Shown here: in pieces, positions 23 through 62,510 of the stretch
How positions within the stretch are numbered: the first letter of the stretch is position 1
How the letters are laid out: each line of letters begins with the position of its first letter
Assembly: GCA_030264375.1 (NCBI GenBank)
Contig: JASCQW010000001.1
Coordinates: 112,170,318 to 112,234,317, forward strand
Direction of reading: 5' to 3'
Source: Carcharhinus longimanus
Taxonomy: Eukaryota
Length of the DNA: 64,000 nt
The notes under the pieces: model-generated
Databases searched by the model: none
What the model was told of the DNA's origin: nothing
Seen by the model: the letters and a program-made list of their open reading frames with translations, nothing else
Made by a program: the position numbers and the translations under genes

Positions 23-1721
23 ACCCCGCTTTTGTGGTGAGCTGAAAACACTGAGATCTTCCGATCCTGGTGCTTTCAGCACATTCCTTGTCTGTAGTTA
101 CCAACCAACCAGCCGCCAAGATGGGCCAAATGGCCTCTCTCTGTACTGTAGGGTTTCTATGATTTTTATAAATGGTCTACCCTGTATCCTCAGACTATGA
201 CCTCTGTTCTTTTCAGCTCTTCTAAATGCAAAAACTTGAGCTCCCTTTTGATACTAAAAACATTTTTGAATTTGGCTTCATGCAGTTTACATATAAGTTT
301 TCTGAAATTGATCAAGGACAATCTTGTTCATGGTATGGTCGCTGCCCTGTGCAGCCGAGAGGAAATACAACGTTTAAAAAAAAATTGCAATAGGTTGCTA
401 GTGTGGTATTCTCCTGAAAATGTAATTCGGGTACTGCTAATATTGCAATTGATGTGTTTACTGTTAACACTCCAGCCTGTTTTAAGAAATGAACAGATGA
501 ATTCTAAAACATACTGAAATATAAGTGTAGACTTGGTAGATGTCCAATTCTATCAGATGGATCTTTTTGACTGCTGGCAATTGCTAATGCATAAAGTAGA
601 TGTACAGCTTGTACTTTAGTGAAGTAAAGTACATTCTGTAAGTAATTATAATCAATCGATGACAATCCAATTTATTTGTGCACAACTGAGGTCATAATTA
701 CAGCAAGTTCCTATTGGAAATAATTGACGTTCCAAGCTGGGTTAATGATAAATCGTGAAAGTGGAACAGAGTAGTTTGGTATTTTGGTGGTACAGCAGTT
801 ACTGCCATTTGACAAACTTAACTTTTAAGTAAATGGCACTTGAGTTTTTATGTAGGTCTGTTTGGTGAATTGTTGACCAAATTAGCTTCTAAATCCTTGG
901 ATAAGAGCTGTTCATATGGCACTAATGTGACATGAAGGAATAATTGATGATCTTTGTTGAGTATGGTCTTTTTAAGCAGCTTTGACGCATGGTTGAAGTT
1001 TTGTATACAATATCTTTCTACTTAGTGGATGCATGCTACTAATAATTTATTGTAGAGCAAGATGACATATTTGTGTCCTGATTGACATGCAGGAAGTGGC
1101 CTTTTCCTCTTGCTGTTGATGTGCAATTAACTAAAATTATACAGGAATTTGAATCATTTTGAAGTGAGGTATTGCTTGAAAAATTGGAACATATATTTAA
1201 TGTCTTTGTTGATGAATATGAAATTGTAACACCCTACAAGTCAACTGCCGAAATATATGACGATTTACTAATCCCTGTTGTATGAGCAAATTTTCAAATA
1301 AATACAGATGATTTTAACTTCATTCATGAAGCTAAGAATAAACGATGCACTTGATGGATATTGGATCTATTGTTTGGCTACATTTCAGTTACATTTTGTT
1401 ATGTTGGAATGGAATAAATGATGAAATCTTTTAATTTTATACTATCCTTGATACTGATTTTATGATTACATGTAGTGACATTTTGATTTTATTAATGGAA
1501 ATGTTAATGGTCCACAATTTCAAGTTGTGTTTTATGTAGAGATTGTAAATCAGTTGTTTGGCTTATGAAGTTATGAACTTGATTTTATGCCATGCCCCTT
1601 TTTACGAAATGAAGGGGATGCAAAGGAATATGTTAGGAAATGGATTCGAGATGTATTACTAGGGCGGGTTGTGTGCTTTTGTATTCAGTATTATATGGTT
1701 TGTACATGCAGACGGAGTGGA

Positions 1722-2029
1722 AGTTTAAAGTTTACTTATTAGTGTCACAAGTAGGTTTGTGTTAACACTACAATGAGGTTACTGTGAAAATTCCCTAGTC
1801 GCCACACTCTGCCTGTTTGGGTGCACTGAGGGAGAATTTTAGTATGGCCAATGCACCTAACCAGCACGTCTTTTGGACTCTAGGAGGAAGCTGGAGCACC
1901 CAAAGGAAACTCACACAGACATGGGGAGAATGTGCAGACTCCGCAGAGACAGGACCCAAGCCAAGAATTAAACCTGGGTCCCTGGCGTTGTGAGGCAGCA
2001 GTGATAACCACTGTGCCACCATGCCGTCT
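1722..2029 (-). mobile_element. tRNA-derived V-SINE, tail type B
   Basis: Minus strand reads ggcatggtgggcacagtggttatcactgctgcctcacaacgccagggacccaggttt (A/B box-like head), then the V-domain, then tail cctacttgtgacactaataag. Confidence 0.85.
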
Positions 2030-2924
2030 GGTATTGGGTCGAGGAAAAATGAAGGGACTGTAGAATGAGGAAGTATTAGGATTGATAGTTTTGAAGGTTG
2101 ACAGTGATGCAAGGCCATTGGGCATGTGAGTGGAGTCTAGAAAGTCAGAGATTTGTGTGTCATGATCTGGGAGTATCAGGAGTACTGTGATCAGTACTTT
2201 TGATAGTGAGACTATGGGGGTGAGATGCTAGTGCCCTGATGCCTTGTTGGGGGCATCATGAGAAGTGATAGGTGTATGATATCAAAGTAGAGAGAAGGGT
2301 TTGCCAGATTCTGGAATGACAGGCTTTGGGAGGATTGGGCCAAAAATTATTGGCTGTGGGAATGGGATTTGGTAGTATTTTTATGGAAGCGGTGAATGAA
2401 AAGGCTTCAAGCTTTATTGAGTTACCCTGGTCCAGTAATCTATCAAAGATACTTTGAGCATTGTGGGATTTTTGTTTGACTTGGAATTTTTTTGGTCGGT
2501 GATGAAGCAGCATGTAGCTGTGCACAAAGTTTTCGCAGGCTACAGAGCAGTGACTGACTATCAGAGGATACCTATTTGTGTGACATCCTCTGAGGAACAT
2601 GTATTTTTATCTTTGACTAATTGAAGCAGTGAGGTTCTTCAAGCAATCAGATTGAAGAATCCTCACTACATCACAAGTCCAAACTGGAAGTATAAAGCAG
2701 GAAATATAACATAAATTTTAATTGCATACAGAAGGTGAAATAAAGAGGAGGCTACAGAGGTGACTCCTCGTGTTCAAATTTAATGTAGATACAGATTGAG
2801 TTTTAACATTTGTTGAATTGCAGGTCTCCTGTTCTAGTCTCCTTTTAATGCATGGAATTGGTTTGGTGCATCTGACCCAACTCTCCCAATTTAGCCAACC
2901 ATGTTTCTAATTTATCTCATTCCG

Positions 2925-5455
2925 ATTTCAGAAAGGCAAATAACATAGCAAAGGAGGTGGGGTTGCCCTGATAGTAAGGGATGACGGAACGGTATTCATG
3001 AGAGTCTGTCTTCTGAAGATCGAACAGGTAGAATCAATAAGGGTGAAAATTGGGTTTAGCAAGAATCAGCGAACACTGATGGGAGTAGTTTATAAGCTTC
3101 CTAATAATGGTTATACCATTGGGCAGAGAATTAAACAATTAATTATTGCAGCCAATAACAATAGAAATGTAATAACTGTGGGGGACTATGCAGACTGAAA
3201 CAATTAAATTGGCAAGAATGGTCTGGAAGATGAGTTTGTAGAATTTTTTATCATAGCTTCTTGGAGCAGTATGTAGTGGAACTGACTAGGGATAAAGTTA
3301 TCTTAGATTTAGTGTGGTGTAACGAAGCAGGGTTAATTAGTAATGTCGTAGTAAAAGGTCTACAGGGAAATAATGACCTTGATACCATTCAATTCCACAT
3401 TAAGTTTGAAAATGATGTTTTCCAATTGCAAACACAAATCTTAAACTTAAAGCCAGTTACATCAGTATGAGGGGTGAACGGGCTAAGATTAATTGGGTAA
3501 GTAGACTAAAAGGTGTGGAGGTAAATTAACAGTGGAAAACACTTAAAGAAACAATTAAAATGTTTAAGAAGGATACATTCTACTTAAGAACAAACACTTG
3601 GCAAGAAGGAGTCATCCATGGCTCACTCAGGAAGTTAAATATAGAATTACATTAGAAGAACAGGCTTTCAATGTTGCAAAGAACAGTAGCAGATTTGGAA
3701 GATTGGGAGTGTTCTAGAAAGCAGCCACCGGCCACCAAAAACTTGATAGCTAGGAATATAAAAACAGATTGCAAGAGCATTTAAAAGTATATAAAAAGGA
3801 AAGGGGTGGCTAAAGCAAACGTCAGTCCCTTAGAAGCAGAGGCAGGAGAAATTATCATGGGGAAATGATGGAGGCATTGAACATATGTGTTATCTGCCTT
3901 AAGAGAAAATGCTGGAAAATCTCAGCAGGTCTAGCGGCGTCTGTAAGGAGACAAAAGAGCTGACCTTTCGAGTCCAGATGACCCTTTGTATCTGCCTTCG
4001 CAGCAGAAGATACAAGTTCTAAACCAGAAATAGACAGTAACCTCTGGGCTAAAAGATAGTGTGGAAATTAATATCAGCAGAGATAAAGTATTAGAGAAAC
4101 CTAAGGGACTAAAATCAGACAAATCCTTGGGGACTTGAGGCTAACGCCCTAGAGGTCTAAAAAATATAGCTGCAGAGGTAGTGGATGTGATAGCTATAAT
4201 TTTCCAAAATTCCTTAAATTTGGATCAGTTCCACTAGGCTGGAAGTTGGCAAATGTTATACTGCTTTCAAGAAAGTAGGGAGCAAGGAAATGGTGAATTA
4301 CTGGCCAATTAGACTAACAAATTTTGGAAAATGCTGGAATTTAGAATTAAGGAAGCCGTAACTATATACTTAGCAAAAACATGTTGCTATATTTTTCTAA
4401 AGGAAAATCCTGTTTGGTAAATTTATTAGAGGTTTTTAACGATATTATTAGTAGGATAGATAGAGAGGAACCAATAGATGTGGTATGGCTGGATTTCCAA
4501 AAGAGATTTAATAAGGTGTCACAACAAAAGTTAGTAGGTAGATAAAGGCTCATGGTTTTGCGGCTACAGGATTGGTTAATGAATAGAAAACAGAGTGAGC
4601 ATACACAGGGCATTTTCAAGTTTGCACACAATGATTAGTGGAATGCTGCAAGAATCAGTGCAGGGGCCTCAGCTATTTGCCATTTTTATTAATTACTTAA
4701 ATGAAGAGTTGGAGAATAAGTTTGCTGATGATACCAAGTTAGATAGAAAGGTAATCTGCAGGGAGGAAACAAGAGAGGCTGCAAAGAGATGTAGATAGGT
4801 TAGATGAATGGGTAACAAGTTGGCAAATAGAGTATAGTGTAGAGAAGAGTGAAGTTATCCACTTGGATTGTAAGAAAAAAAAGATTTCTTTAAAAGGTGA
4901 GAAACTTTTCAGAGTTGATGTTCAGAGACTTGAATGTGCGTTTTCAAAGAAAGCAGAATGCTAATACTCGACTGCAGTAAACAATTAGAAAGGCAGATGG
5001 CTTGTTGGCCTTTATTACAAAGGGATTGGAGTCCAAGAATAAATAAGTCTTGCTACAGTTGTGTGGGGTTTTGGTGAGATTACATTTGGAACACTTGCGC
5101 AGTTTTGGTCTCCACATTTAAGAAATATTTATTTGCTTTGGAGATGGTACAGTGAAAGTTCACTAGATAGGTCAACCGCCTCATTGCAGGGACCAATGAT
5201 GAGAGGCTGGGTAAATTGAGCTTATATTCTCTGAAGTTTAAAAGAATGAGAGGCGATCACATTAAATCCTGCAAAAATCTTGATAAGGTGAACACTTTGA
5301 GATTCTTTCCATTGGCTAGAGAATATAAAACATAGGATATGGGGAATGGGCCAGAAAATAGAGTTGAGGCCCAATATCAGCCACAATTGTATGAAATAGT
5401 GGAGCAGGCTCGATGAGCTGTGTGGTCCATTCCTGCTCCTATCTCTTATGTTCTA
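2925..5455 (+). mobile_element. Decayed CR1 LINE ORF2 (endonuclease end, RT, 3' tail)
   Basis: GGGVALIV, ILDLVWCNE, DVVWLDFQK, QESVQGPQLF and KFADDTKL motifs in broken frames; CR1 tail tcctgctcctatctcttatgttct. Confidence 0.9.
3901..3988. mobile_element. Penelope-like terminal fragment nested in the CR1
   Basis: Flanked by a 10-bp direct repeat TATCTGCCTT (3891-3900, 3989-3998); same family as the fold-back at 22222-22425. Confidence 0.75.
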
Positions 5456-7309
5456 TCAAAACTTGCTCACAAAACAACTGTTAAGTAAATGTTAGGAGAT
5501 GAATTCACACATGACCACATGAGCATGGGTAGTTCAGTGATGTAGCACCACTGGAGTTAATCTGCCGGTCTGTATTTTCTATTGTGTAGTCTCTCCAACA
5601 AAATTTTAAATATTTTATCTCACAACAACCAATTTTTTTTAAAAAAGTGTTTTTTTTAAAAAAAGAGGGGATTTTTCTCTCAAAGTGCAAGGAGCTGTGT
5701 AATGTGCATGTATGCAGGACCACATCTCAAATTCTTGTGTGATTGGCTTTATCTCCTCAATGACAGCGCCCTCTACCCCTGACTGTCTACTGATCACCCA
5801 CATGGCAAGCATTTTCAAATAATCTCTGTACAAACATGTTAAATCTGTATAAATTAACTATTGAAGCAGTTGTCGTAGCAGGCAGCATTCGTTTAATCAA
5901 CAGAAAAGGAAGTATTAAGCTACAGTTCTCACTTCTTAAAATTGGTGGTAGTCTTTTTGGACTATCAGGAGAAATCTGTGTCTTTTCAACACTGTACAGA
6001 CAAATCTTTATATATGAATTTGTGTGACTATCGAGTGAAGCCAGGATTATCCTCAACTACTACCTCTGAGGTTAAAAAAGGCTACTGATATTGACTGCAA
6101 TGCTCACTGATTTGTGACATTGGTCGCTTGAACAAGGCCTTGGTGCAATACCTCTGCAAGGAGGCAACAATTTATTTGAGGAGGGAACGAAGCAGGTGAG
6201 TAAAGTAGGGGAGGGCAGAAAGCAACCTATTGTGGACTACATAAGAACTGATAGAAATGTTCGTCAAAAGCTAAGAAAATCAAATGCTAAGATTTATACA
6301 AGTAACAATGAGGTAGCATTAGCTACTAATGTCTTCAGCTAATAATTGGATTTGTTTCTCCAGGATGGTTTTCATTATGGTGATACAACTCATTTTTCTT
6401 AAATGGATCAAATAACTCCAGCGCTAATCGTTTTTGCATAAACAACTCGTATTCTATCATTTTATATCCAGACACACTGCTATGCCCGTTAATGGACATT
6501 ATCTGAAACACAGCCATACAAATTGCTTCTTTCAGATCCAGCTTATTATACTATCTTTGATGAAAACCACTGTATTAGTTTGCATAATGCTATTTTTAAC
6601 AGAATAGTGGCATCTGGTTTACTGAACAGAATGGGTGAATTGCGTTGCCATTTTGTCCATGTCAGTGTTCACTGGTGTCTCCTTTCCTGTTGAGTGAAAT
6701 TTTGAAATCAAACTGCAAACCTCAATGAGAGCAAGTTGAAGTGAGCCCTAAAATTTTCTAGGTCAAAGTATGCTTTGCCACGAAAATGAAACAATTGCTT
6801 ATTATTCATGGTTTACTTGAGTCCATTGTACATTCAGTTATTTAAACTAAGTCCTGCTTCTTGGAATGTTATCGGTAATGGAAATAATCTTACCTTGATA
6901 AAATTTGTTTTGGTGGAATAATAAAGCATCTTATGCATTCAATATAATGGGCAGGGCAAATCAAGACTAAGGCGACTTGACTGCAGCATGTGGCTGGCAT
7001 CTCCTCGCTGCAATGCTTTCCTCTTATCAGTGTTACCTTTGTGTCTTTAACGTCTGTTCGCATAGCTGAGCGACATGACCTGAACATCATTTGAAGGCTT
7101 AAATTCAGGTCACTGTGCTTCTCATCAGATAATCCTTTTTATAAATAGGCCAGCTTAGGAATAGCAGGTTCATAAGAAACATTAATTCCATTTGAAATCC
7201 AATAGACTAATGTATTGTCATATTTGTGAAATGTGTATTTATGCAGCCAGTACAATCAAGATTCTGTCTCTTTTGCAAAGTTTCTATAGCCACTAATGTT
7301 CCACCAACA

Positions 7310-22188: not shown

Positions 22189-22426
22189 AAAAGCAAAATA
22201 CTGTTGATGCTGGAATCAAAGAAAAACAGGAAATGCTGGAAAATCTCAGCAGGTCTGATGGTATCTGTGGAGAGAGAATCGAGCGAATGTTTTGAATCTG
22301 AATTACCCTTTGTCAGAGCTGCACGGATCTCTGACCAAGGGTCATCCACATTCAAAACATTGACTCTATTCTCTCTCCACAAATGTGGTCAGACCTGCTG
22401 AGATTTTCCAGCATTTCCTGTTTTTA
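22189..22426. mobile_element. Penelope-like tail-to-tail fold-back element
   Basis: 97-bp inverted arms (22222-22318 and 22329-22425), outer 37 bp perfect, 10-nt loop. Confidence 0.75.
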
Positions 22427-26164: not shown

Positions 26165-26476
26165 ACATAGAACATAGAACATAGAACATTACAGCGCAGA
26201 ACAGGCCCTTCGGCCCACGATGTTGCGCCGACCAGTTNNNNNNNNNNNNNNNNNNNNNNNNNNNNNNNNNNNNNNNNNNNNNNNNNNNNNNNNNNNNNNN
26301 NNNNNNNNNNNNNNNNNNNNNNNNNNNNNNNNNNNNNTCAACTGACAAGTCCTCATCAAACTTTCTCTCCGACACTGTGATACAGTCCTTGACTAGCAAT
26401 GCTACCCCACCCCCTCTTCTACCTTCATCTCTACTCCGACTAAAGCATTTGTACCCCGGAACCTGCAACAACCATT
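26165..26476 (-). mobile_element. Young CR1 LINE, mostly hidden in a gap
   Basis: The 3' tail repeat (acataga)n is on the left and endonuclease-region sequence WLLQVPGYKCFSRSRDEGRRGGGVALLVK on the right; 9-bp TSD CCTGTAATT at 26156-26164 and 26477-26485. Confidence 0.85.
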
Positions 26477-49940: not shown

Positions 49941-52119
49941 TTGGTAATGGGGAAGGTCCATATAGTCTCCACTGGTGATGGCACGACAGGTGTAAGTACC
50001 CATCGGGCACATAACCGGGCAGCATGAATGTTCTGCCCAAGATTCAGGAGGGGAAGATTTGCCTGTCAAGAGCTGTGGTCAGTCAGAGGCTGGCAGTTCT
50101 CCATTGGTGGTAATGGATGAGGATTGTGGGGGTGGGGGATTGCCACATATTGCGGAGACGCTGGTTAGAAGAATGGAGGAAGTTGGCTCTAAGGTACAGC
50201 AGGAATATTTGGATAACTCTACCAAAATAGGGCTGAATGGCCTCCTTTCATGTCGTACCGCGATTTTAAAGTGGGTTTGTATGCAATCCTCTTTGAAAAA
50301 CCATGTTAGTTATTCAAAGGAAAGTCACAGCATTGTGGAAAATATTTGCCAGCAATAAATGTGCTGGTGGTTCAGCAATTTGGGAACAAGCATGCAGACC
50401 TGTCAAGAAACTGTATTTAGTGTGTGTGTTATCTCTGGCCCAGAAGGACATTTTAAAATCTTATTGACTCATGGGGCACATCAGAAATCCCTCGCATCCA
50501 TGGATTCCAGTCTGAAAGTCTATATTGTGGGTAGGTTCTTGTGTTGGCATTAGGTTTAAACTGTTATTGGAACTTTGATATATTAATAGCTGCTTCCCAT
50601 CCCTTTAGAAAAAAAATCTAGTTTTATTTAGGTGGTGTCTGGGGATTCTCTTTCTGGAAAGAGATTAGAACCTAATAATTTATAAATCTCAGTGCATCCC
50701 AGGTGGTATCATGGAACCATTTTAAATGTTGAAAAATGTTAGTCTGACGGAACCAATGCTTATTGCTGTAATTACTATAATCAGCACTTTCCTTCAAAGA
50801 AATGTTAACATTGCTGTTTATATCCTTAAGTTATGGGGTAATGAGACAGTTTCATATGCTAGAGTAACAAATGCTATTTCTTGATATTTCTAGCTATGTG
50901 TACATTGCAACTGTATTTGACCTCCACGTTTTTATGGAATGCATAGTACTATCCCAGGCTATATTTTAATAGGCACGTGGATTTGAAAACTATCTTTCAA
51001 TTTGATCTTTCTTATGAAAGTTGAGTAGTGTTCTTTTAGTTTTATCTTCCATTTGGATCATTTTTAACCGGATTATATTTAATAGACCATTATTCTACCT
51101 CATTGTAATGCATTGTGATACTGGACATGACTCCTGGGATGCTGCTGATGTACTTCCATGGGTTGCTGAAATGTGTTTGGAATTGCAATTCAGTGTTTTT
51201 GCCAGGAGGTTAACTTTGGAGAAGCTGGGAGCCAACTCCAGAGCTCTGCTGAAAGGCATAATTCCATCTGACCTGTTGCTTCTTCCTGACCAGGGAAATG
51301 TTGCAGCCTCTGTCTGGTGTTACTAATGTTCAAAACTGAGTAGAGTGGGATATGGAATCACTACCCTCCCCTCCTTTCTGTGGTGCTGATTGCTGATGTT
51401 ATAATTTAGCACCACCATGCTGATTCTTCATTTAGGCCCAATTTGTACAAACAAAAGGTTACTTCAATCAGAAGTCTCTTGGACACTATTTTCCTTTTGA
51501 ATAGAAAAGATTTTCGTTGTTATGCTCTGTTGGCACAAATTATTTTCCAGTTTAGACACAAGAAATCTAAGCAATTGATATTTCTGCTCTCACTTCCCAT
51601 CCGTGCATGAATCGTGGATTTATTTGAATGTCTTAGAACTCGAATTTCTCCTCGTGTTGTGGTATCTAACAATTGATTTATTCTGAAAAAACACATCCAT
51701 TTTACCTTCTGATCACTGGTGTCTTAACAGTTTAGTAATGGCTCAGTGATGGTGCAAGAGGTTAGTAAGTTTTTAAACTATCAAACATTAAGGCACTCAT
51801 AGAACTATCAGCATTAAGTTAAATGACTTTTAAAATAGGTTTATGACTAACAAGAAAGCAGTTTGCATACATATGAGATGCAGTAAGCGATTTAAACAAG
51901 TGATTATGATTTTAAAACACGCTGATATTTTGAATGTATTAATGTATTTTTAAAGGTATATTGTTCACTTTAGCTAAGGGCAATTTGCTGTGAAGCATTA
52001 GGGCAAAACCATATTCTAAGAGAATGTTAAGGCCTTGAGAATATGCAAGATTTATCAGTAAAATTTTGGATGAAGACAACATTTAATTCACTTAATCATA
52101 TTTCATGAATAGGATTTAT

Positions 52120-52369
52120 TCAATGTCCAGATAAGATGGATACATGCCCAGACATGGAGGCATGTGTTAATCTGGTTTGGCAGTGACCTACAGAGGAACT
52201 CATGGGAACATTAATTTGAACTTTGGGTTAGCGTCTGAGGTTACCAAACATCACGGGAAGTGGGGTCAGCCAAGACAGGAGTTAGTTTCTACGGACTAAC
52301 AAAATGCCATTTTGCCAGAGGGTAAGATACAATTGGCTAAGGTAAATGGCAGGTGGTATTGTTGATTTA

Positions 52370-52411
<42 letters not shown>

Positions 52412-52666
52412 TGATTGATTTATAGCTAATGAAAGGCAGGAGTAATTGATTAAAAAAAACCTATAATTGATCTGTTTTGAATTGTTTACATCAAATTTTC
52501 ATCGGAGATGTCTAGGTGCTTTATCTCAGAGTTGCCCTGACCCTTTGGTTTCTCCTAGCTGCCACTGGTCTAAATAAAAGTTATGTCTTTAAACTGAGTT
52601 AGTGGCTTTGTGAGTCTTGTATTGTCTGAAGTTTCAGCAGTACCGGCCACCTCAGAAACCGCACCA
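52120..52666 (+). promoter_or_regulatory. Putative 5' LTR
   Basis: TATA-like ctataat at 52461, AATAAA at 52573-52578, CA at 52665-52666 shortly before the PBS; contains a (TA)n at 52380-52409. The 5' boundary is a guess because there is no second LTR to compare. Confidence 0.5.
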
Positions 52667-52673
52667 GTCTTTC

Positions 52674-52689
52674 TGGCGAGAGGATATGG
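52674..52689 (+). promoter_or_regulatory. Primer binding site, tRNA-Ser(GCU)-like
   Basis: TGGCGA-GAGGAT versus TGGCGACGAGGAT, the complement of the vertebrate tRNA-Ser(GCU) 3' end; one base deleted. Confidence 0.65.
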
Positions 52690-53159
52690 TCACCGGAGTC
52701 TAATAGCGGGATGTGCCTCCTCAGAAAGGGTGAGTATCTTTACTTTACCGCCCGAGCTGCTTAGAAGGAGAAATGCATCAAGTTGTCGGATCTGTAAGTT
52801 AACCTGTCCGAACGAGCATTTGGGGTCACAAGATTAGTGTCAGTGACTAAAGAAACCGTGTTTAAACAAGAGGGTGTGATAACCAATCTGTGAGTGGAGT
52901 CAAGAGAGCCGCCTGGTGGGATAGACGTAAAAATTATTGGGCACACTTAATCCAAAAGGCCAGGGATGGAATCCTGGTACTGTTTGCTCAGTAGAGCCAA
53001 GAGTGTCGTGCATCAGTTAACGCAAGAGGCAAGAACCAACTGGAGAGGGCATTAGTCAGCCTAGACATTAGAGTGCCCCATGGGACCGGGAGAGAGAAGC
53101 ATTTTTGAGTTATTGGGGTGGAGAACTCAGTAAGGCATCCCCGGTTAGGAGAAATTAGA

Positions 53160-54736
53160 AGACAAGGGTCAAGCTTTCAGCAGGGGGTTAAGGGCTTTGA
53201 CCAGGAGGAATTCCCAGAGAAGGGTCTGTGGAATTGGAAGGGAAAGTGGATAGAAAACAGAAATAGAAATTAGAGAGAGGGAGAGAGAAAGGGCAAGCGT
53301 GTTGGGAAAGCCAGTAATATGAAATTGAAAAACACAGTGAGGTTAGAAGGTCTAGAATGCCCTACTGTGGTCATGTAGAGTATGAAAGAAAGTGTAAATT
53401 TAACATGGGAAAAAGATGATTTGTTAATACAAAAGATAGTAACAGAGCATGATTAATTAGGAAAATGATAGAGAAATGATCTGATTTAGAGATTTCTGAG
53501 TCCCTGAGCAAAAGTCCTGGTGGAAAGCCCAGATTAAACAAAAACCAGAATGGTCGTGGTGATTCACGCTGCTATGATGAGAAATCACCTTCAGAAAGAG
53601 CCAATTAACAAATAGTTAGTCACTGCAAAAACTGTTGGGGAAGACTCTGAAGTGTGCCTATAGAGAGGGCGGTAACCAATTCATCGTATCCCCCAATTCC
53701 AAAGGAGTCAGCTGAGGAGGAAATAGTTTGGGAAGATTTATCAGGAAGGGTAACTCACAGAGATGGAAATTCCCCTAAGGATAATAAGGTGGGATTGCCT
53801 GTTCTGGTAGCACCACTCCATACAATAATAAAATCAACTGGTAGAGGGAGAGGAACAACCACTGTAACTACTGAGGAAGCACCATGTTAGGCAACTGAGA
53901 AGCAGATGCTTATGGATTAATTTAGGTCTATTGTGTCGTTATCACCAAAATTTGTCTTTGGAAAAGTATGGATGAGTTATGAGATGTTTATCATTTGACT
54001 TTGGATGACATAAGAATTTTAGTAAAGGGAAAGTTAGCAGCACCAGCATGGTAATTGTTACCTGAACCTTTAAAAAGGAGAAATTGGATATTTGCAACGT
54101 GTGATAGTGAGGACCAAAGATATGAACAATTAACTGGGTGATAGGGTGAACTATTGGTAAAAGACACACCAGTTGGACAAAGGTAACTTTAGTTAAACAC
54201 GATCCCAAAGAATCCGTAAAAGAATACAGAGAAAGGTAATTCAGGGCTTCTGTAGATAATCGAGGGGTTGAAAATCTTACTAGAGATGACGATATGTTTT
54301 TGGGCTTGCTCAGAGAAGGGTTTCGTCCAGCTCTGACTTGAATTATAGATTTGGGTATTCCAGTAGGAAATAATTATCGGGATGCTATGAATTGGGCTAT
54401 GAAAACAGAATCCAATTACCAGAAAAATCCCAAGATGATTCCAGTACAAATTGGTCAGTCACAACCTAAACTTATAAAGGGCTTTGCCTGTTGAAAGAAA
54501 GGACGTTTTGCTAGGGATTGCCGAAGCAGAGACACAGGAAATAATCTGAGTTACGAAAAACAATACAGCAATTGTCAAAGGTCATAACATGAAAAAATGT
54601 TGGGTGAAAAGGAGGGGTAGAGAAGGACAGGGTAACAACTAGGCAAATTCATCCTCTGAGTCTCAAACCCAAAGTATTACAGCCAGTATTTCAGATGACA
54701 GCAGCTGAATTGCAGAAATTGTTAGGTCAGAAATGA
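53160..54736 (+). pseudogene. gag: Retroviral gag relic
   Basis: Many stops. PVLVAPLHT..TTEEAPC; knuckle relics FAC*KKGRFARDC (about 54483-54522) and SNCQRS*H..CWVK; ends MTAAELQKLLGQK-TGA. The start is uncertain. Confidence 0.7.
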
Positions 54737-56918
54737 CAATTAGCAGCTCTTGAGATTGCAGGTAGAGATCCCCCAGTATGTAGAAGCAGTTTTTGGAAGC
54801 CAACCTACATCGTGTTGGTAGACACTGGGGCATCTATATCGACAACACATTTAAACTTGCCAACAACTGATCAGACCATACAGTTGCAAGAAATAACTGG
54901 GAGAATTAAGACCACGTTATTGAGTGAACTTACTACATTGGAGATTGAGGGTAAAGGGGTCCAGATTTGGATATGTTCAACAGAGGAAGGAAGTATTTTA
55001 GGGATAGACCTGTTCGAACAATTGGGGGCTATAATCGATACCAAGGCAGGTAACGTAAGGTGGCATACGTTGTACAACTGAAATCGATGGGGTGAGAAGA
55101 AAGGTTGCAATACCTCTAGAATAGGGACACTCTGACAAAATTGGGAGAATGGAACAATATAAGGAAATTTGGCTGCACAGTATCCTCAGGCTTGGTCCGA
55201 ACACAAACATGATTGTGGGTATTTAGATGTCCCTCCGATAGCAATTCCCGGAAATGTTCATTGTCCACGTAGACAATACCTCTCAAACTAGAAGCAATGG
55301 AAGCAGTTAAAAAGGTCATTTCAGATTTAGAAAAGCAACAAATAGTAACCAAGATCTCTTTGGAGACTAATTCACCTGTTTGGCCAGTAAGAAAGCCAGA
55401 TGGCAGCTATCGATTAACTATCAATTACACAGCTTTGAATCGCTCTGTGACTCGAGAGCATTCCAAAGTGGTGAATCCAGCTAGCATCCTGAACACCACT
55501 GAATAGAACAGATGATACTTAGAATGCTAGACATAGCTAATGGATTTTGGTCAATTCCTATAACTGAGGAACATCAATATAAGTTTGGAATAACATCAGG
55601 AATCAGCAATGAAGTTGGACCTATCTGCCACAATGATTCCATAACAGTCCAGCGATTTTCCACAAATGCCTGGCACAGGTAATAGAGCCTTTAGAATGCA
55701 GAGGAACAACCATTTTGCGGTATGTGGGTGACATTTTGATAGCAACGAAAGGATAGAATGGGGAGAGAAGGAAGCACAGGCTTTCTCTGATTTAACGCAA
55801 GTTATGTTAAAAGCTCTCCCATTAGGATTATCAGATCTCACTAATCCATTTCACATTTTTTTGTCAGGAAAATGATGGAATGCAAGCTGCAGTGGTGACC
55901 AACAACCTGGAGACAGGTTAAATAAGACTAGTGGGGTACTACTCCATCCAGCTAGATTTAGTTGCTAGAGGTACGCATCAATGTGTGAGAGCACTAGCCA
56001 TGCCTCATGAGCAATAAGTGGTTCAGAGCCACTTACCCTGATGGGAAAAATAATTCTCCACAGTCCTCACTCAATTGTCCAGCTTGTAGAAGCTGGAAAA
56101 TTAAAAGGAGTTTCTGATGGAAGATGTTCAAAATGGGAAGCAAATCTCTTGCCAGTAGACAGGCGTGTAGAAATCAGCAGAGATGTAAGGGAAAATTCTG
56201 CAGGAGGATTGACAGTATGAGGAACAGAGCACGAATGAGTTGCAGAAATGAATTAGGGAGCAAGTGAAGGTTTAGCAGAAGAACCGCTCACAGATGAAGA
56301 GGTGATTAACCTATATGTGGACAGAGCTAGAAAATATGTTAATGGTAAACCCCGCACTACATGGGCAGTGGCAAATGATGAAGGAACAGTGATTTGCAGG
56401 AGAACAAATCCCAGGGAGTAATTCAGCACAAGTAGCAGCAGCTTTAACTAAAATTGTAGCATGGAGCATCGGAAAACGAGTTAACATTTATACAGACAGC
56501 CGACATGCTTTTGGGGTAATTCATGACCATGTGACAGCTTGGAGCAGGCGAGGTTTCATTCCATCAAGCAGTGGACATGTACAGCGTGAGAATTTGGTTA
56601 ATGATTGAATCCAAGCCGCCTGTAATCCCTTAGAAGCAGCTATAATCAAAGTGCAGGCGCACAAGAAAATTAAGAGTCAAGCACAGAAGGGAAGCAGTCA
56701 AGTTGACAAAACAAGATTTATTAGAACAGAATTGGAAAGGGACAAAAACAGATGTGGCAGCATTACAAGTTAATGATATCACAGATATTAATGTGAAGCA
56801 AGTACAGGAACAAGTGTCAGAGGAAGATGGCGTACGAAGAAAAAGGAAAATAATAGCATCAGAAGCAATACAGCAAACCTTGTTAAAAGTATAGCATGGA
56901 TTAGCTCGTACAAGTAGA
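54737..56918 (+). pseudogene. pol: Retroviral pol copy A: protease, RT (internally deleted), tether, RNase H, start of IN
   Basis: LVDTGAS, ILGIDL, NSPVWPVRKPDGSYRLTINY, LDIANGFWSIP, LPQ*FHNSPAIFH, YVGDILI, VGYYSIQLDLVARG, NLYVD, NIYTDSRHAFGVIHD. Confidence 0.92.
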
Positions 56919-57165
56919 ACAAAGAACAAAGAACAAAGAACAACCCAGCACGGGAAACAGGCCCTTCGGCCCAACAAGCCCGCGCCGCCACNNNNNNNNN
57001 NNNNNNNNNNNNNNNNNNNNNNNNNNNNNNNNNNNNNNNNNNNNNNNNNNNNNNNNNNNNNNNNNNNNNNNNNNNNNNNNNNNNNNNNNNNTGCACCTGC
57101 AGGCTGGGTTTTTGCGACTCATGCACAAGGACCCCGAGGTCCCTCTGCACCGTCGCCTGCTGCAG
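56919..57165 (-). mobile_element. CR1 3' portion spanning a gap
   Basis: (agaacaa)n tail, gggccgaagggcctgttt, and QRDLGVLVHESQK after the gap. Confidence 0.85.
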
Positions 57166-57378
57166 TTAGGAATCAGCAATACACTTGGATTCATCTGCCA
57201 TAGGGATTCCATAACAGTCAGCGATTTTTCACAATACATGGCACAGATAATAGAACCTTGAGACTATGCAGGAACTATCATCTTGTACTATGTGGATGAC
57301 ATTTTGATAGCATCAATAACACATTGCTGTGCCGTACACAGAGCGATTCAAGCAATTCACAAAGCTGGTCTTATGCTA

Positions 57379-57471
57379 CATGATGCCGGCGTCGGACTGG
57401 GGCAAACACAATAAGAAGTCTCACAACACCAAAACTGGTTGGACTTTAACCTGGTGTTGTGAGACTTCTTA
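57379..57471. mobile_element. Short Penelope-like insertion with an internal hairpin
   Basis: 8-bp TSD TTATGCTA (57371-57378, 57472-57479); removing it restores the RT frame KAGLMLNPSTAQLGQEQVTYLGH. Confidence 0.8.
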
Positions 57472-58592
57472 TTATGCTAAATCCTAGCACAGCACAGTTG
57501 GGGCAGGAACAGGTGACGTACCTGGGACATGTTATATCCCGAGGTTAAAAAACAGATTCCAGAAGATCGAAAGAAAGCTATGCTTTGTTTGCAAACACCA
57601 CTTGCGGCACAAGGGGCGAGACAAGAGTTAGGACTTTTTAATTATTACAGGAATTTTGTGGAAAATTATGCAGTGTTGGCAAAACTCTTCTGGATTTGAT
57701 TAAAGGAGGAAGGATGCAATGAAAAAATAGAATGGGGAAAGGAGGAAGCAAGGCTTTCTTCAATTTAGAACAAGCTATGGTAAAAGCCCCTGCATTAGGA
57801 CTATGGGATTTTACTAAATATTTCACATTTTCTGCCAAGAGTATGATGGTGGTAGCCCAACAACATGGGCACAGATTAAGACTGGTAGGGTATTACTCTG
57901 CCCAACTAGATTTAGTTGCCAGGGGTATGCATCGATGTGTGAGAGCACTCGCATTGCCTCATGGGCAGTAAGTGTTTCAGAGTCACTCATCCTGATGAGA
58001 AAAATAATTCTCCACAGTCCTCACACAATTGTCCAGCTTTTAGAAGCCGGGAGATTGAAAGGACGGAAGATGTTCAAAATGGGAAGCAAATCTCTTGCCG
58101 GGGAACAGGCATCAGCAGAGATGTAAGGGAAAACCCTGCAGGAGGATTGAGAGTGCAAGGAACAGAGCATGACTGTGTTACAGGCGCGAACGAGGGAGAA
58201 AGTGAAGGTTTAGCAGAAGAACCACTCAAGGTGATTAACCTATGAGTAGATGGAGCTAGAAAATATATAAAGGGAGAACACCACATTGCATGATAAATGA
58301 TGACGGAGCAGTGATTACAGGAAAATAAATCAGAGGGAGTAATTCAGTACAAGTAGCAGAGTTGTTATCTTTAACGAAAACTTTAGAATGGAGCAAAGGG
58401 AAATGAGTTAACACTTAGACAGACAGTAGATATGCTTTTGGGGTAATGCATGAATAAAAAGCTTGGACAGACGTGGTTTCAATACATCAAGCGGGGGTCA
58501 CGTACAGCATGGGAATTATATTACAAATCTAACCCAAGCGATTATATTACAAATCTAACCCTAATCAAAGTGCAGGCTCGTAACAAGATTAA

Positions 58593-58706
58593 GGCCAGAA
58601 TTTTATCAGCGTGCTGAGGGTGGGCAAGGCTCATGGAATGGCATCCTCCATTGGCCTCAGGCGGGATCTTACGAGCCTCATGGGGCAAGGTGGTAAAATT
58701 CTCAGA
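58593..58706. mobile_element. PIF/Harbinger-type MITE
   Basis: Absent from copy A; TAA duplicated on both sides; ends ggccagaatttta / taaaattctcaga. Confidence 0.7.
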
Positions 58707-59426
58707 TAAGAGTCAAGCACAGAAGGGAAATAGTTAACCTAACAAAACGGCAAAATGTTCATTAATACAAAATTTGAAAGGAACTCAAACAGCAAGTGCG
58801 GTCGTATTACAAGTTCGTGACGTTACAGACATTAATGTGAAGCAAGTACAGGAACAAGTGTCAGAGGAAGAGAAGCAGAAGTGGGTAAAAGAAGAGGGAC
58901 AAAAAGATGGTGAATGGAGAAGAGGAGAGAAAATAATAGCACCAGAAACAAACTTTGTTAAAAGTACACAATGGATTAGCTCATACAAGCAGAGATGAAA
59001 TGGTCAGCTTAGTTGGAAATCGTTGGTGCTGGAAAGGTGTGGGAGGAGGCATAGCAAATTTTTGTTAGAGGCTGCACAGTGTGCCTTGGTGGAATTAGGA
59101 CGTCACCACAGGGTTAAGATGTGGTCCCAAAGGACCAGGGGAATATTTGCTGATGGATTTCACAGGACAACCATTTGGAGTAAAAGGGAGGATTTATTGT
59201 TTAGTAATTATTGGTCAGCTTGCTCGATGGGTTGAAGTATTCCCATGTAAGTATGCCACAGCCAAAACTGTAGCTTTGATATTGGTGAATGAAATAATAC
59301 GAAGGTGGGGAACGCCTCTTCAGATAGACTTAAGACCAGGGATCTCACTTCACAGGAAGAGTTTTAAGAGAAGGCTGTAGAATGTTAGGGATGCCATATC
59401 ACCCAGAGGGCTCAGAAACGGTAGAA

Positions 59427-59694
59427 GACCAGTGCCCCACAAGGCTGTGTCCTCAGCCCTTTAATATACACTTTATACACTGACGACAGCATGGCCAAAT
59501 TCCTCTCCAACTCGATTTTCAAGTTTGCTGATGACACCATCGTAGTGGGTTGGACCTCAAGCAATGACAAGACAGAGTACAGGAACGAGGTAGAGAGTCT
59601 GGTGAACTGGTGTGATGACAATAATCTCTCCCTCAATGTCAACAAAATGAAGGAGATAGTCATCGACTTCAGGAAGTGTAGTGGAGGACATGCC
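59427..59694 (+). mobile_element. Rex1-like LINE RT fragment
   Basis: Open frame APQGCVLSPLIYTLYTDD..KFADDTIVVG..WCDDNNLSLNVNKMKEIVIDFRK. Confidence 0.85.
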
Positions 59695-59793
59695 NNNNNN
59701 NNNNNNNNNNNNNNNNNNNNNNNNNNNNNNNNNNNNNNNNNNNNNNNNNNNNNNNNNNNNNNNNNNNNNNNNNNNNNNNNNNNNNNNNNNNNN

Positions 59794-59921
59794 NGAAGTA
59801 CTAGGCCACTCCCGGAACCTCCAAGAGCAGCCCACGCACGACCCACCGTGTGCATGCCCCTCGTTTCACAATGAGGTGGACCTCCACCTGCGGAATAAAA
59901 GACAAAAACGTTAATCACATT
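59794..59921 (-). mobile_element. Probable CR1 5' region / start of ORF1
   Basis: Minus strand SCVGCSWRFREWPS resembles the CxxC..W..RE start of CR1 ORF1; bounded by the GTAGA repeat at 59922-59926. Confidence 0.5.
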
Positions 59922-60870
59922 GTAGAGATACAATGGTCAAATTAGTTGGAATTTGGTGGTGGAAAGGTATGGGAGAAATGATAGCAAAATTCTGTCAGAA
60001 ATGTTTACAGTGCACGTTAGTGGAACCAGATCATCACTGCAAGGTTAAGATGGGGAACCAGCTGAGACCCAAAGGACCATGGGAATATCTGCAGATGGAT
60101 TTTACGGGACCATCACCTAGAGCAAAAGGGAAGACTTATTGGTTAGTAATTATTGATCGGTTCAACGATTGTTGAAGCATTCCTACGTAACAGCCAAAAC
60201 TGTAGCTTTGATGTTGGTGAATGAAATAATACCTAGGTGCTGAATGCCCCTTCAGTTTGACTCAGGCCAAGAAACTCATTTTACAGGAAGAGTTTTAAGA
60301 GAAGTCTGCAGAATGTTAGGGATAAGACAAAAATTTCACATACCATATCACCCACAGAGCTTAGGCATGGTAGAACGAATGAATTAAACACTGAAGAATA
60401 GTTTAACCAGGGCCATTTTAGAGGAAGGAAACAATTGGGTACAGGCTTTGCCTGCAATATTGTTATGACAGAGAGCTACACCATCCTGAGGAATAGGATG
60501 AACCCATTTTGAATTGATGACTGGTAGGTCAATGTGCCTCCCTAAGGATGTAATAACAGGGGGAGGAGAACTTGAAGTTGGCCGAGAAGCAGTGTGTCAG
60601 TGTACGAGAGATTTAGTAGACCATTTACATATTCTCAAAAATTAGGTAATCATTCAACAGCCACATGGAGATTGGATCAAATTGGCAGTGGAGTACATTC
60701 CTAAATTACCTACACCAGGGGATAATGTAATGGTGAAACTCATGATAGATAAAAAAGAGCTAGGGATCAGATGGGAGAGGCCATTTAGCATGATGGTGAC
60801 AGGACAAATGTACCCTAATTGATGAGTAGTACAGTCCACGATAGCGACCTTAAACACAGCTGAAACCATA
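59922..60870 (+). pseudogene. pol: Retroviral integrase, continuation of copy A
   Basis: CQKCLQC, GPWEYLQMDFTG, LVIIDRF, THFTG, FHIPYHPQSLGMVERMN*TLK, WVQALPAIL, FELMTGR, RWERPF. Confidence 0.9.
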
Positions 60871-61599
60871 CCCCAGTAATAACAAAATTGACCCAGAGGG
60901 TGGATAATCTTGTAGAATAGGGGATCATCACAGCTTTTATAGTCACATTACTGATAACAGGGATAATTTGGATTTGCAGATGATTTATTAGATTGGGCCA
61001 GATTATGATGCTTGGATAATAGAGGAAATTGAAATGATTTAGTTAATGTGATACTAACTCAAGTGCTGCTGGGCACTTTAAGTTTACAGCATATCTGATA
61101 TACAATTTGTGAGATCTGAGAAATTTCAGGTAGATTCCCCCAGAAGTGGCGCTGTGGGTAAAGTTCCACACAGTTAACCAAAGGAAGATGTGAATACCGT
61201 CAGCTAANNNNNNNNNNNNNNNNNNNNNNNNNNNNNNNNNNNNNNNNNNNNNNNNNNNNNNNNNNNNNNNNNNNNNNNNNNNNNNNNNNNNNNNNNNNNN
61301 NNNNNNNGTTGTGAATACGGTCAGCTAAAACAGTACAAGTTGGTTTTGGGTTTGGGATGGGTGGGGTGGGTATGGGACTGGGGGTGGTCTATTGGTATCA
61401 TTTAGTAGCTAGATGTCAAAAAGAGGGTGAAGAGGATCAGCACCAGAGGCTGCAGAAGAGTATTTGAATTTGGGAGCTGGATCCTTAGGGAAAGGAAATG
61501 AAGACATCAGGAGTCTAAAGGGATGAGAGCAGCAGCAGCAGTTGGGATGTTGCGCCACACCAGTCTTTTGGAAAATGATCTTGAGACTTGGTTGATTGA

Positions 61600-62510
61600 C
61601 TTTTACCCCCTCCTATTTTTCACCTGCATGCTACCTCAGTGACATTATCTGAAAATAATCTGTTTCTACATGTATGCTGGGACACCCAGCTCTACTTCAC
61701 TGCCATCTCTCTCAGTCCCTCCATTGTCTCTAATTTTATAAGGCTGCTTGTCAGGCATTCAGTTCTGGATGAGCAGAAATTTCCTTCAGCTAATTATTGG
61801 CAAGACTGAAACCATTGTTTTTAGTTCCACTGCACTGTGTTCCATAGCTATCAACCCCATCTATCTTTCTGCCAACTTTGAGGCCATACTGGACTGTCTG
61901 CAACGTTGGTATCAAATTATGCCCTAAGATAGCTTCTGACACATCTCTGCATTCTGCCTATTTCCACCTTTGTATAAATGCCAACTGCACCCTGTCTCAA
62001 AAGGAAAAACCCTGGGTGATACCACCAGACCAACCCCTGCTCACTTCACCCCCAGCCCCACACCAAACCCAAGACCATCGTGTACTTGCTTGAAATCTGA
62101 AATAAAACAGAAAATGCTGGAAAGAATCAGCAATTCTGGCAGCAGATGTGGAGAAATTAACACTTAACATTTCAGGTCAAGATTCCATTAACTCTGTCTC
62201 TCTGTCTGTGCACTTGTGGAGTATTTGCAGCACATTCTATTTTTATTCTCCCCTTACTCAGCTCTTCTTCTGCTGAAACTCTTATCCATGCCTTTGTTGC
62301 CTGTAGCCATGACTATTTTAACGCCCTCCCGTCTGGCCTCCCACATTCTAACTTCCATAAACTTGAAGTCATCAAAAACTCAGCCACCCATGTCCAATCT
62401 TGCATCAAATCCTGTTCACCTATCACTCTTGTGCTCACTGAACTACATTGGCTCCCAGTTAAGGAATATCCTACTTTTAAAATTCTTATCCTTGTTTTCA
62501 AATTCCTCCA
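61600..62510 (+). mobile_element. L2 LINE RT/C-terminal relic with a nested Penelope-like fold-back (about 62085-62250)
   Basis: YMYAG-TQLY (decayed YADDTQLY), gcaagactgaaaccattgtttt, actacattggctcccagt. Confidence 0.7.

Follow-up and report, generated by a model that had tools for sequence, protein, structure and literature searches.

A decayed endogenous retrovirus, probably of the snakehead retrovirus grade, in a contig of Carcharhinus longimanus

The window analysed here, 64,000 nucleotides of Carcharhinus longimanus contig JASCQW010000001.1 (assembly GCA_030264375.1, positions 112,170,318 to 112,234,317 of the forward strand), contains a purine-rich retroviral fossil at positions 52000-61700, whose three-frame translation is full of stops. 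We interpret this element as a dead, ancient endogenous retrovirus (ERV) of the grade related to snakehead retrovirus (SnRV; clade Huo of Xu 2018), belonging to a sub-lineage with the whale shark element Rh_ty_ERV4 and the turtle elements Ch_my_ERV12 and Pe_si_ERV12, and thus as a newly recognised, decayed representative of a lineage that is published but little studied, a reading to which we assign a probability of roughly 85%. The few open reading frames of more than 120 codons in the span are located on the opposite strand or within inserts, and the locus today appears to be in neutral decay and encodes nothing intact. An earlier note on this sequence had considered that it may represent an undescribed elasmobranch family. 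For the lineage this is not the case, since the whale shark consensus was already published in 2018 (Xu), although at the nucleotide level the element may still belong to an unnamed family. Beyond Han 2015 and Xu 2018, no dedicated description of the shark lineage was found in the accessible portions of the literature, subscription papers lying outside the search. With the element, a thinly sampled region of the retrovirus tree gains one more decayed representative.

Phylogenetic placement

Self-comparison resolved the pol region into three overlapping pieces, with A reaching from the protease to the start of the integrase (IN), B from the middle of the reverse transcriptase (RT) to the middle of the integrase, and C containing integrase. 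In the RT of piece A (55279..55750; all features given here lie on the forward strand unless stated otherwise), which retains its N-terminal part and has lost the thumb by deletion, NSPVWPVRKPDGSYRLTINY (55369-55428) and LDIANGFWSIP (55527-55559) are present as described in the earlier note, and the motif read there as LPQ(G)FHNSP has a stop in place of its G, with FHNSP at 55637-55651. YVDD, also reported in the note, is found only in piece B (57289), whereas piece A reads YVGD (55721). The combination of DxxNGFW and YVDD is less distinctive than initially thought, as it also occurs in SnRV, ZFERV-2, lokiretroviruses and ERVs of frog, coelacanth and turtles; these motifs are shared old characters and not the sign of a foamy hybrid. 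The element further possesses a tether and a second RNase H, as in Retroviridae and in contrast to Ty3/Gypsy. A Pfam search with 15 frame pieces returned matches for seven of them (protease, RT, RNase H, weak tether and integrase), including RVT_1 (E 5e-7) and the separate RNase_H (E 6.5e-7) in piece A and a weak match to the tether family RT_RNaseH_2 (E 0.078) in piece B.

For the phylogenies, searching with a profile of the integrase piece yielded 150 reference proteins and a search with a frog relative a further 120, including SnRV pol (P0170, identified as SnRV via a published alignment), and viral contigs supplied SnRV, foamy, gamma-, epsilon-, delta- and betaretroviral as well as lentiviral genomes; the other group labels were assigned by us, in part by motif match. 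The RT trees comprised 44 of 74 rows, the 30 dropped being near-duplicates and extra Gypsy or class I rows. In these trees, pieces A and B pair with each other (99/95 with LG+G4, 99/96 with LG+C20) and fall inside the retroviruses to the exclusion of lokiretroviruses and Gypsy in three trees (99/96, 100/98 and 98/96), but outside the foamy clade and the branch uniting classes I and II (99/98, 100/99). The base of the RT tree, where A and B stand alongside SnRV and elements from frog, coelacanth and ostrich, is poorly supported. Once added to the RT tree, the sister of A and B (98/92) is L056, a contig recovered in a metagenome scan that yielded 12 loci from 165 pattern matches. In the approximately unbiased (AU) test, a grouping with Gypsy was rejected (p 0.03). 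An RT position firmly inside the epsilon/gamma ERVs or Gypsy, the outcome that would have spoken against the earlier note, was not obtained, although class I was not formally rejected (p 0.059). We read the element as a true retrovirus, probably of the SnRV grade, one of the regions of the tree that the note had named; the hand counts given below favour its sub-lineage with Rh_ty_ERV4.

The other two regions named there do not fit. Lokiretroviral RT, sister to that of all retroviruses, reads CPFG where the element has LPQ.F, and the two are set apart by bootstrap values of 98-100, although the AU test does not reject their grouping (p 0.079). Lokiretroviruses also have an Env resembling paramyxovirus F, and at the present locus no env body was found to set beside it. 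Crocodilian and turtle ERV4 are defined, in the available part of PMC4299795, by a Gag without zinc finger and by the absence of a GPF/Y motif after the integrase, whereas the element shows two zinc knuckle relics and a RWE.PF segment; the same source (Chong 2014) indicates that Ovex1- and SnRV-related ERVs can have a zinc finger. With ERV-S/ERV-L (class III), described in the accessible text of PMC8278194 as having a Ser primer-binding site (PBS), no Cys-His box, YIDD and a dUTPase, the element shares only the Ser PBS and an in-frame TGA, its knuckles and YVDD being different.

For the integrase, a tree built from 51 of 109 rows, whose bootstrap had not fully settled, grouped pieces B and C with P0006, P0003, the terrapin protein P0004, P0011, P0008 and P0014 (98/93). 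No close relative of P0003 was detected in the viral collection, and the Atlas contained only generic integrase clusters.

A foamy-related virus of clade Tu that retained its knuckles, and thus an intermediate between foamy viruses and orthoretroviruses, appears highly improbable to us. It is true that foamy proteins are the best Protein Data Bank (PDB) matches of the RT and integrase pieces and that an RT grouping with foamy viruses was not rejected (p 0.47). However, the PDB match lists include no competing protein of the SnRV grade, the RNase H shares only 15-20% identity with that of foamy viruses, and in the RNase H tree a grouping with foamy viruses and lokiretroviruses was rejected (p 0.04; 0.068 for foamy viruses alone). 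Moreover, the knuckles, the in-frame gag-pol arrangement and the Ser PBS are all unlike what is found in foamy viruses. The foamy Gag lacks a Cys-His box according to the consulted part of PMC5210030, and no CCHC motif was present in the fetched foamy loci, as opposed to two relics here; foamy Pol is initiated separately and in a different frame from gag (PMC8278194, as far as accessible), whereas here the end of gag and the protease share one frame around a single stop. Finally, the PBS matches that of foamy viruses at only 9/18 positions, compared to 14/18 for tRNA-Ser(GCU), and therefore differs from the tRNA-Lys type, one of the Lys, Asn and Thr types of the Spumaretrovirinae (the comparison covering Lys).

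The RNase H raises the question of whether the element, L056, Rh_ty_ERV4 and the turtle ERVs might rather form a separate genus-level lineage that bridges the SnRV grade and class I, combines an SnRV-like RT with a class-I-like RNase H and was wrongly put in clade Huo. In a tree of 43 out of 74 RNase H rows, the element is placed between class I and all other groups (96/93, 97/90), the RNase H of L056 is nearest to class I and the pol proteins P0169 and P0172 (41-46%), and no starred RT branch unites the element with SnRV. The RNase H alignment, on the other hand, has only 138 columns, retroviral RNase H domains are non-monophyletic (PMC7947760, in the part available), and the issue is in part one of naming, given that the lineage has already been sampled in print. 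We therefore regard a separate lineage as unlikely. In the RT trees, P0169 and P0172 themselves branch as the sister group of classes I and II combined (95/90), and P0169 represents 3937 member sequences.

Several points weigh against an assignment to the SnRV grade and its whale shark and turtle sub-lineage. The trees did not include Rh_ty_ERV4, the turtle ERVs, CmiERV-I, ERV-L/ERV-S, ERV4 or fish foamy-like ERVs. For the RT, the AU test did not reject groupings with foamy viruses, lokiretroviruses or class I, and the RNase H is closer to class I (33-40%) than to SnRV (26-28%). The link to Rh_ty_ERV4 and the turtle elements is based on hand counts over the first ~400 characters of each sequence (PMC6001957), and membership in clade Huo on the order of the label text in the S2 Fig of the same paper, not on the drawn tree, as far as this source was accessible; in that order, Rh_ty_ERV4 and the turtle ERVs stand near the end of the Huo block. 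In addition, the A-B and B-C junctions described below are bridged by none of the contigs listed.

Structure, assembly and age of the locus

The element begins with a 5' long terminal repeat (LTR) at 52124..52670 (start approximate), which was recognised by sequence and shows TG at 52124, AATAAA at 52573 and an internal TA microsatellite. In the bin 52420-52759, the summed contig depth reaches 826 in run X1, compared to ~5-11 for single contigs. The depth, which is not equivalent to copy number, is far higher at the LTR end than internally, as would be expected with many solo LTRs. The PBS at 52674..52691 matches the 3' end of tRNA-Ser(GCU), as taken from the primer in PMC9072684, at 14/18 positions with one gap, as against 8-11/18 for the five other PBS among the six candidates. 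The Ser-like PBS reported in the earlier note is thus supported, even though the match is imperfect. No other site of this kind occurs in the window; as shuffled windows contain 0.3 of them on average, the assignment rests mainly on its position directly after the LTR. A second stretch starting with TGGCG lies beyond the end of pol (61149-61158); presumably it resembles the 3' end of another Ser tRNA, and it may be due to chance. No tRNA genes were found in the window and no Rfam families at 51500-62500. Just past the PBS, G|GTGAGT (52730..52735) resembles a major splice donor, a role that we infer from its sequence.

The decayed gag gene (52800..54733, start approximate), with a C-terminal part of the capsid at ~54159-54420, shows a weak match to the Gag proteins of REV (E 0.02) and L056 (E 0.002) and none in the Pfam search. 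It contains two zinc knuckle relics. The first (54480..54521) retains 2/4 ligands, contains an internal stop and matches lentiviral and betaretroviral nucleocapsids among 242 viral open reading frames (best E 6e-4). The second (54564..54600) retains 3/4 ligands, spans a frameshift and agrees in position and following residues with the second knuckle of Rh_ty_ERV4, in our own translation, and with that of SnRV. Both CCHC relics mentioned in the note are therefore present, but neither is intact; a complete CX2CX4HX4C motif is missing from every frame of the window.

Taken as a whole, 52120..61560 does not represent a single clean provirus: it contains three pol pieces, LINE-like (long interspersed nuclear element) inserts, gaps of 100 N and no 3' LTR. 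Piece A continues with tether and RNase H (55747..56710) and the start of the integrase (56711..56918) and is followed by a high-copy LINE-like insert on the reverse strand (56919..57167), which extends across the gap at 56992-57091, has a depth above 1e5 and matches a repeat at 26165. Piece B (57168..59426) comprises the RT from LPQG to the thumb, the tether, the RNase H and the first half of the integrase; it harbours a 101-nt hairpin insert at 57379-57479 with an 8-nt flanking duplication, and another short hairpin-forming insert with inverted repeats is found at 22222-22425. Then follow a LINE RT fragment (Pfam RVT_1, E 3e-11), the gap at 59695-59794 and a second repeat recognised by its depth (together 59427..59912). 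The depth of this repeat (59795-59912) varies strongly between runs (13103, 7357, 2469 and 173 in the bin 59900-60239), possibly reflecting a lineage-specific expansion. Piece C (59924..60850) contains integrase with the C-terminal RWE.PF segment. The only possible trace of env is a hydrophobic stretch at 60921..60977, perhaps the relic of a leader; neither the 242 viral open reading frames of the fetched retroviruses nor Pfam provided an env match. Self-comparison revealed nothing like the 5' LTR at the 3' end, and 60800-62300 yielded neither a 3' LTR nor an env match, nor a polypurine tract that was convincing; the bin 61260-61599 appears to be single-copy. Elsewhere in the window, a second purine-skewed block (~2900-5300), seemingly a decayed LINE that we take to be of the CR1 type, is unrelated to the ERV.

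The pol pieces differ from each other at 27/145, 177/872, 46/240 and 78/388 aligned bases (18.6-20.3%) and represent one family; they arose either through an internal duplication long ago or as copies nested in one another. An initial argument against a duplication of A and B was abandoned, as the ~20% separating them resembles the distances seen among paralogues. Alternatively, the order A-B-C could be a scaffolding artefact, with fragments of different loci joined across LINE inserts. Both junctions coincide with 100-N gaps in high-copy repeats, and none of the contigs listed spans them. However, contigs from run X1 match parts of A and B with 0 differences, which indicates that these pieces exist, and the two flanks of the first gap look, by sequence, like one LINE, so that we consider such an artefact rather improbable.

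The window or part of it was matched by 22 runs from 11 studies; four of the 22 runs were compared, with 30 contigs listed. Among these contigs, organisms B and C are ~3% divergent and organism F ~8% (for instance 200 differences in 2605 bases of gag-pol and 56 in 691 at 61426-62116), and for paralogous contigs the divergence is 14-17.5%, a range truncated by the 80% cut-off. In organisms B, C and F, divergence is equal in the element and in nearby single-copy DNA, which suggests one old orthologous insertion that evolves neutrally, although none of the contigs listed proves the junction. The insertion seems to be present in four or more organisms with a divergence of up to 8% and might be used to set a minimum age. 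No RNA datasets were among the matching runs listed, and word-index searches with pieces of the window gave weak results (3/286 candidates, 1/37 matched).

The gag-pol junction

At this locus, LTR, PBS, donor site, gag, in-frame stop and pro-pol can be read in their sequence and arrangement, and their functions may be proposed by analogy. The ancestor would have been transcribed from its LTR; following established retroviral biology, its reverse transcription would have been primed by tRNA-Ser(GCU) and its RNA packaged via a nucleocapsid with two knuckles. Gag-Pol was presumably produced by readthrough of the single in-frame stop, and env probably expressed from a spliced RNA.

The context of this stop is the part of the element most worth following. 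At 54734..54742, the sequence reads TGA-CAA-TTA, corresponding to the type I readthrough hexamer, and the protease (54737..55100; DTGA at 54821, Pfam RVP E 0.007) continues in the frame of the gag end. A knuckled Gag with an in-frame gag-pol stop is also found in SnRV and Rh_ty_ERV4. The metagenome contigs L056 (2915-2923) and L057 (2467-2475) have a gag-pol TAG followed by the same CAATTA hexamer, which in L056 separates an open gag frame of 601 codons from an open pol frame of 1180 codons. Within the element, CARYYA comes after only 4/494 stop triplets; of all hexamers, CAATTA accounts for 0.12% there and for 0.02% in L056.

In the consulted passages of PMC13517186, the type I signal is defined as UAGCAAUUA, animal viruses are listed with types II and III only, and other stop contexts are given for SnRV, SSSV and two ERVs. 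The available part of PMC3542737 assigns type I to plant viruses and Providence virus, an insect virus already using it, and type III to gamma- and epsilonretroviruses, and it reports that CARYYA is effective after UGA as well. These passages of the two papers, a small literature basis, contain no entry for a type I signal in a retrovirus. Should CAAUUA indeed cause readthrough from gag into pol, a signal that a 2026 review confines to plant viruses would be in use in a lineage of vertebrate retroviruses.

We tentatively propose, at slightly less than even odds, a fish-and-turtle lineage with an SnRV-like RT and a class-I-like RNase H, some members of which make Gag-Pol by means of the tobacco mosaic virus-type (type I) signal stop-CAA-UUA. 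This proposal is based on the exact hexamer after the gag stop in both the element and its RT sister L056. Conversely, there are only two independent cases (L057 being 98.8% like L056), Rh_ty_ERV4 has TGA-CGG and CmiERV-I TGA-CAT, and both cases encode Gln-Leu, possibly favoured as a protease cleavage site. Furthermore, the copy in the window is decayed, L056 also shows folding downstream of its stop (z -2.3), and Providence virus provides a precedent. Folding 3' of the stop in the window was no better than in shuffles (z -0.64). When viral contigs were screened for TAG-CAA-TTA 5' of a protease motif, 34 loci were obtained, of which 0/34 had an RT. Two lokiretrovirus-type loci with CPFG, L058 (~2597-2603) and L059 (~3938-3944), carry the type II context TGA-CTA before a long pol frame.

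Comparison with known systems

In the accessible portion of Xu 2018 (PMC6001957), cartilaginous fish viruses are basal in no major clade. The elephant shark has a lineage that clusters with SnRV (Han 2015, PMC4422223, in the part available), and in our own reading of the portion of Dataset 1 of that paper at hand, its element CmiERV-I shares DISNGFWSIP, LPQGFHNSP, a CCHC Gag and an in-frame TGA with the element. It differs by having one knuckle and FVDD, and its RNase H and integrase are of the frog/coelacanth type as judged by eye rather than by trees. We take its PBS to be of the Ser type, for an isoacceptor different from that of the element, so that the trio of RT motifs, CCHC Gag and Ser PBS, which the earlier note had singled out, would also be present in this published element.

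SnRV (L001, P0170) resembles the element in DISNGFW, LPQGF, YVDD, a knuckle followed by CW.KGGG, the in-frame gag stop and a splice donor after the PBS, and is 41% (A) and 32% (B) identical in the RT, 26-28% in the RNase H and 25-31% in the integrase. It has, however, one knuckle, a different PBS and the stop context TAG GGC. L056 and L057 share the class-I-like RNase H and the CAATTA after the stop, and the RT of L056 is 46% identical to piece A; unlike the element, they have one knuckle, TAG, a different PBS, open gag and pol genes and no env on the contig. In L056, open gag and pol occupy 1112-6460, with no LTR pair on the contig.

The turtle elements Ch_my_ERV12, Pe_si_ERV12, Ch_pi_ERV20 and Ma_te_ERV13 show D[IV]ANGFWSIP and a similar tether in the data available from Xu 2018, but have VPQG instead of LPQG. 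Ch_my_ERV12 is identical to the element at 41/74 positions in the N-terminal part of the RT, over which SnRV reaches 33%, and the terrapin integrase groups with that of the element. YRLTIDYT, GFHNSPAIF, AQLGQ and IPEDRK occur together only in Rh_ty_ERV4 within the S2 Data of PMC6001957, the first ~400 characters of each sequence being considered. Of the published consensus sequences, Rh_ty_ERV4 and Ch_my_ERV12 come closest to the element. By hand count, Rh_ty_ERV4 agrees with the element at 37/74 positions in the N-terminal part of the RT, 17/23 in the DIANGFW block and 22/33 at the start of the thumb. The RT motifs correspond block by block and the protease likewise has DTGA (PMC6001957, as far as accessible), and our own translation adds two tandem knuckles, the gag end MTA.ELQ.LL and an in-frame TGA before the protease. 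However, the bases after this TGA are CGG (type II) instead of CAATTA, and the amino-acid identity of ~50-70% in the counted blocks implies that the whale shark element and the one described here do not belong to the same nucleotide family.

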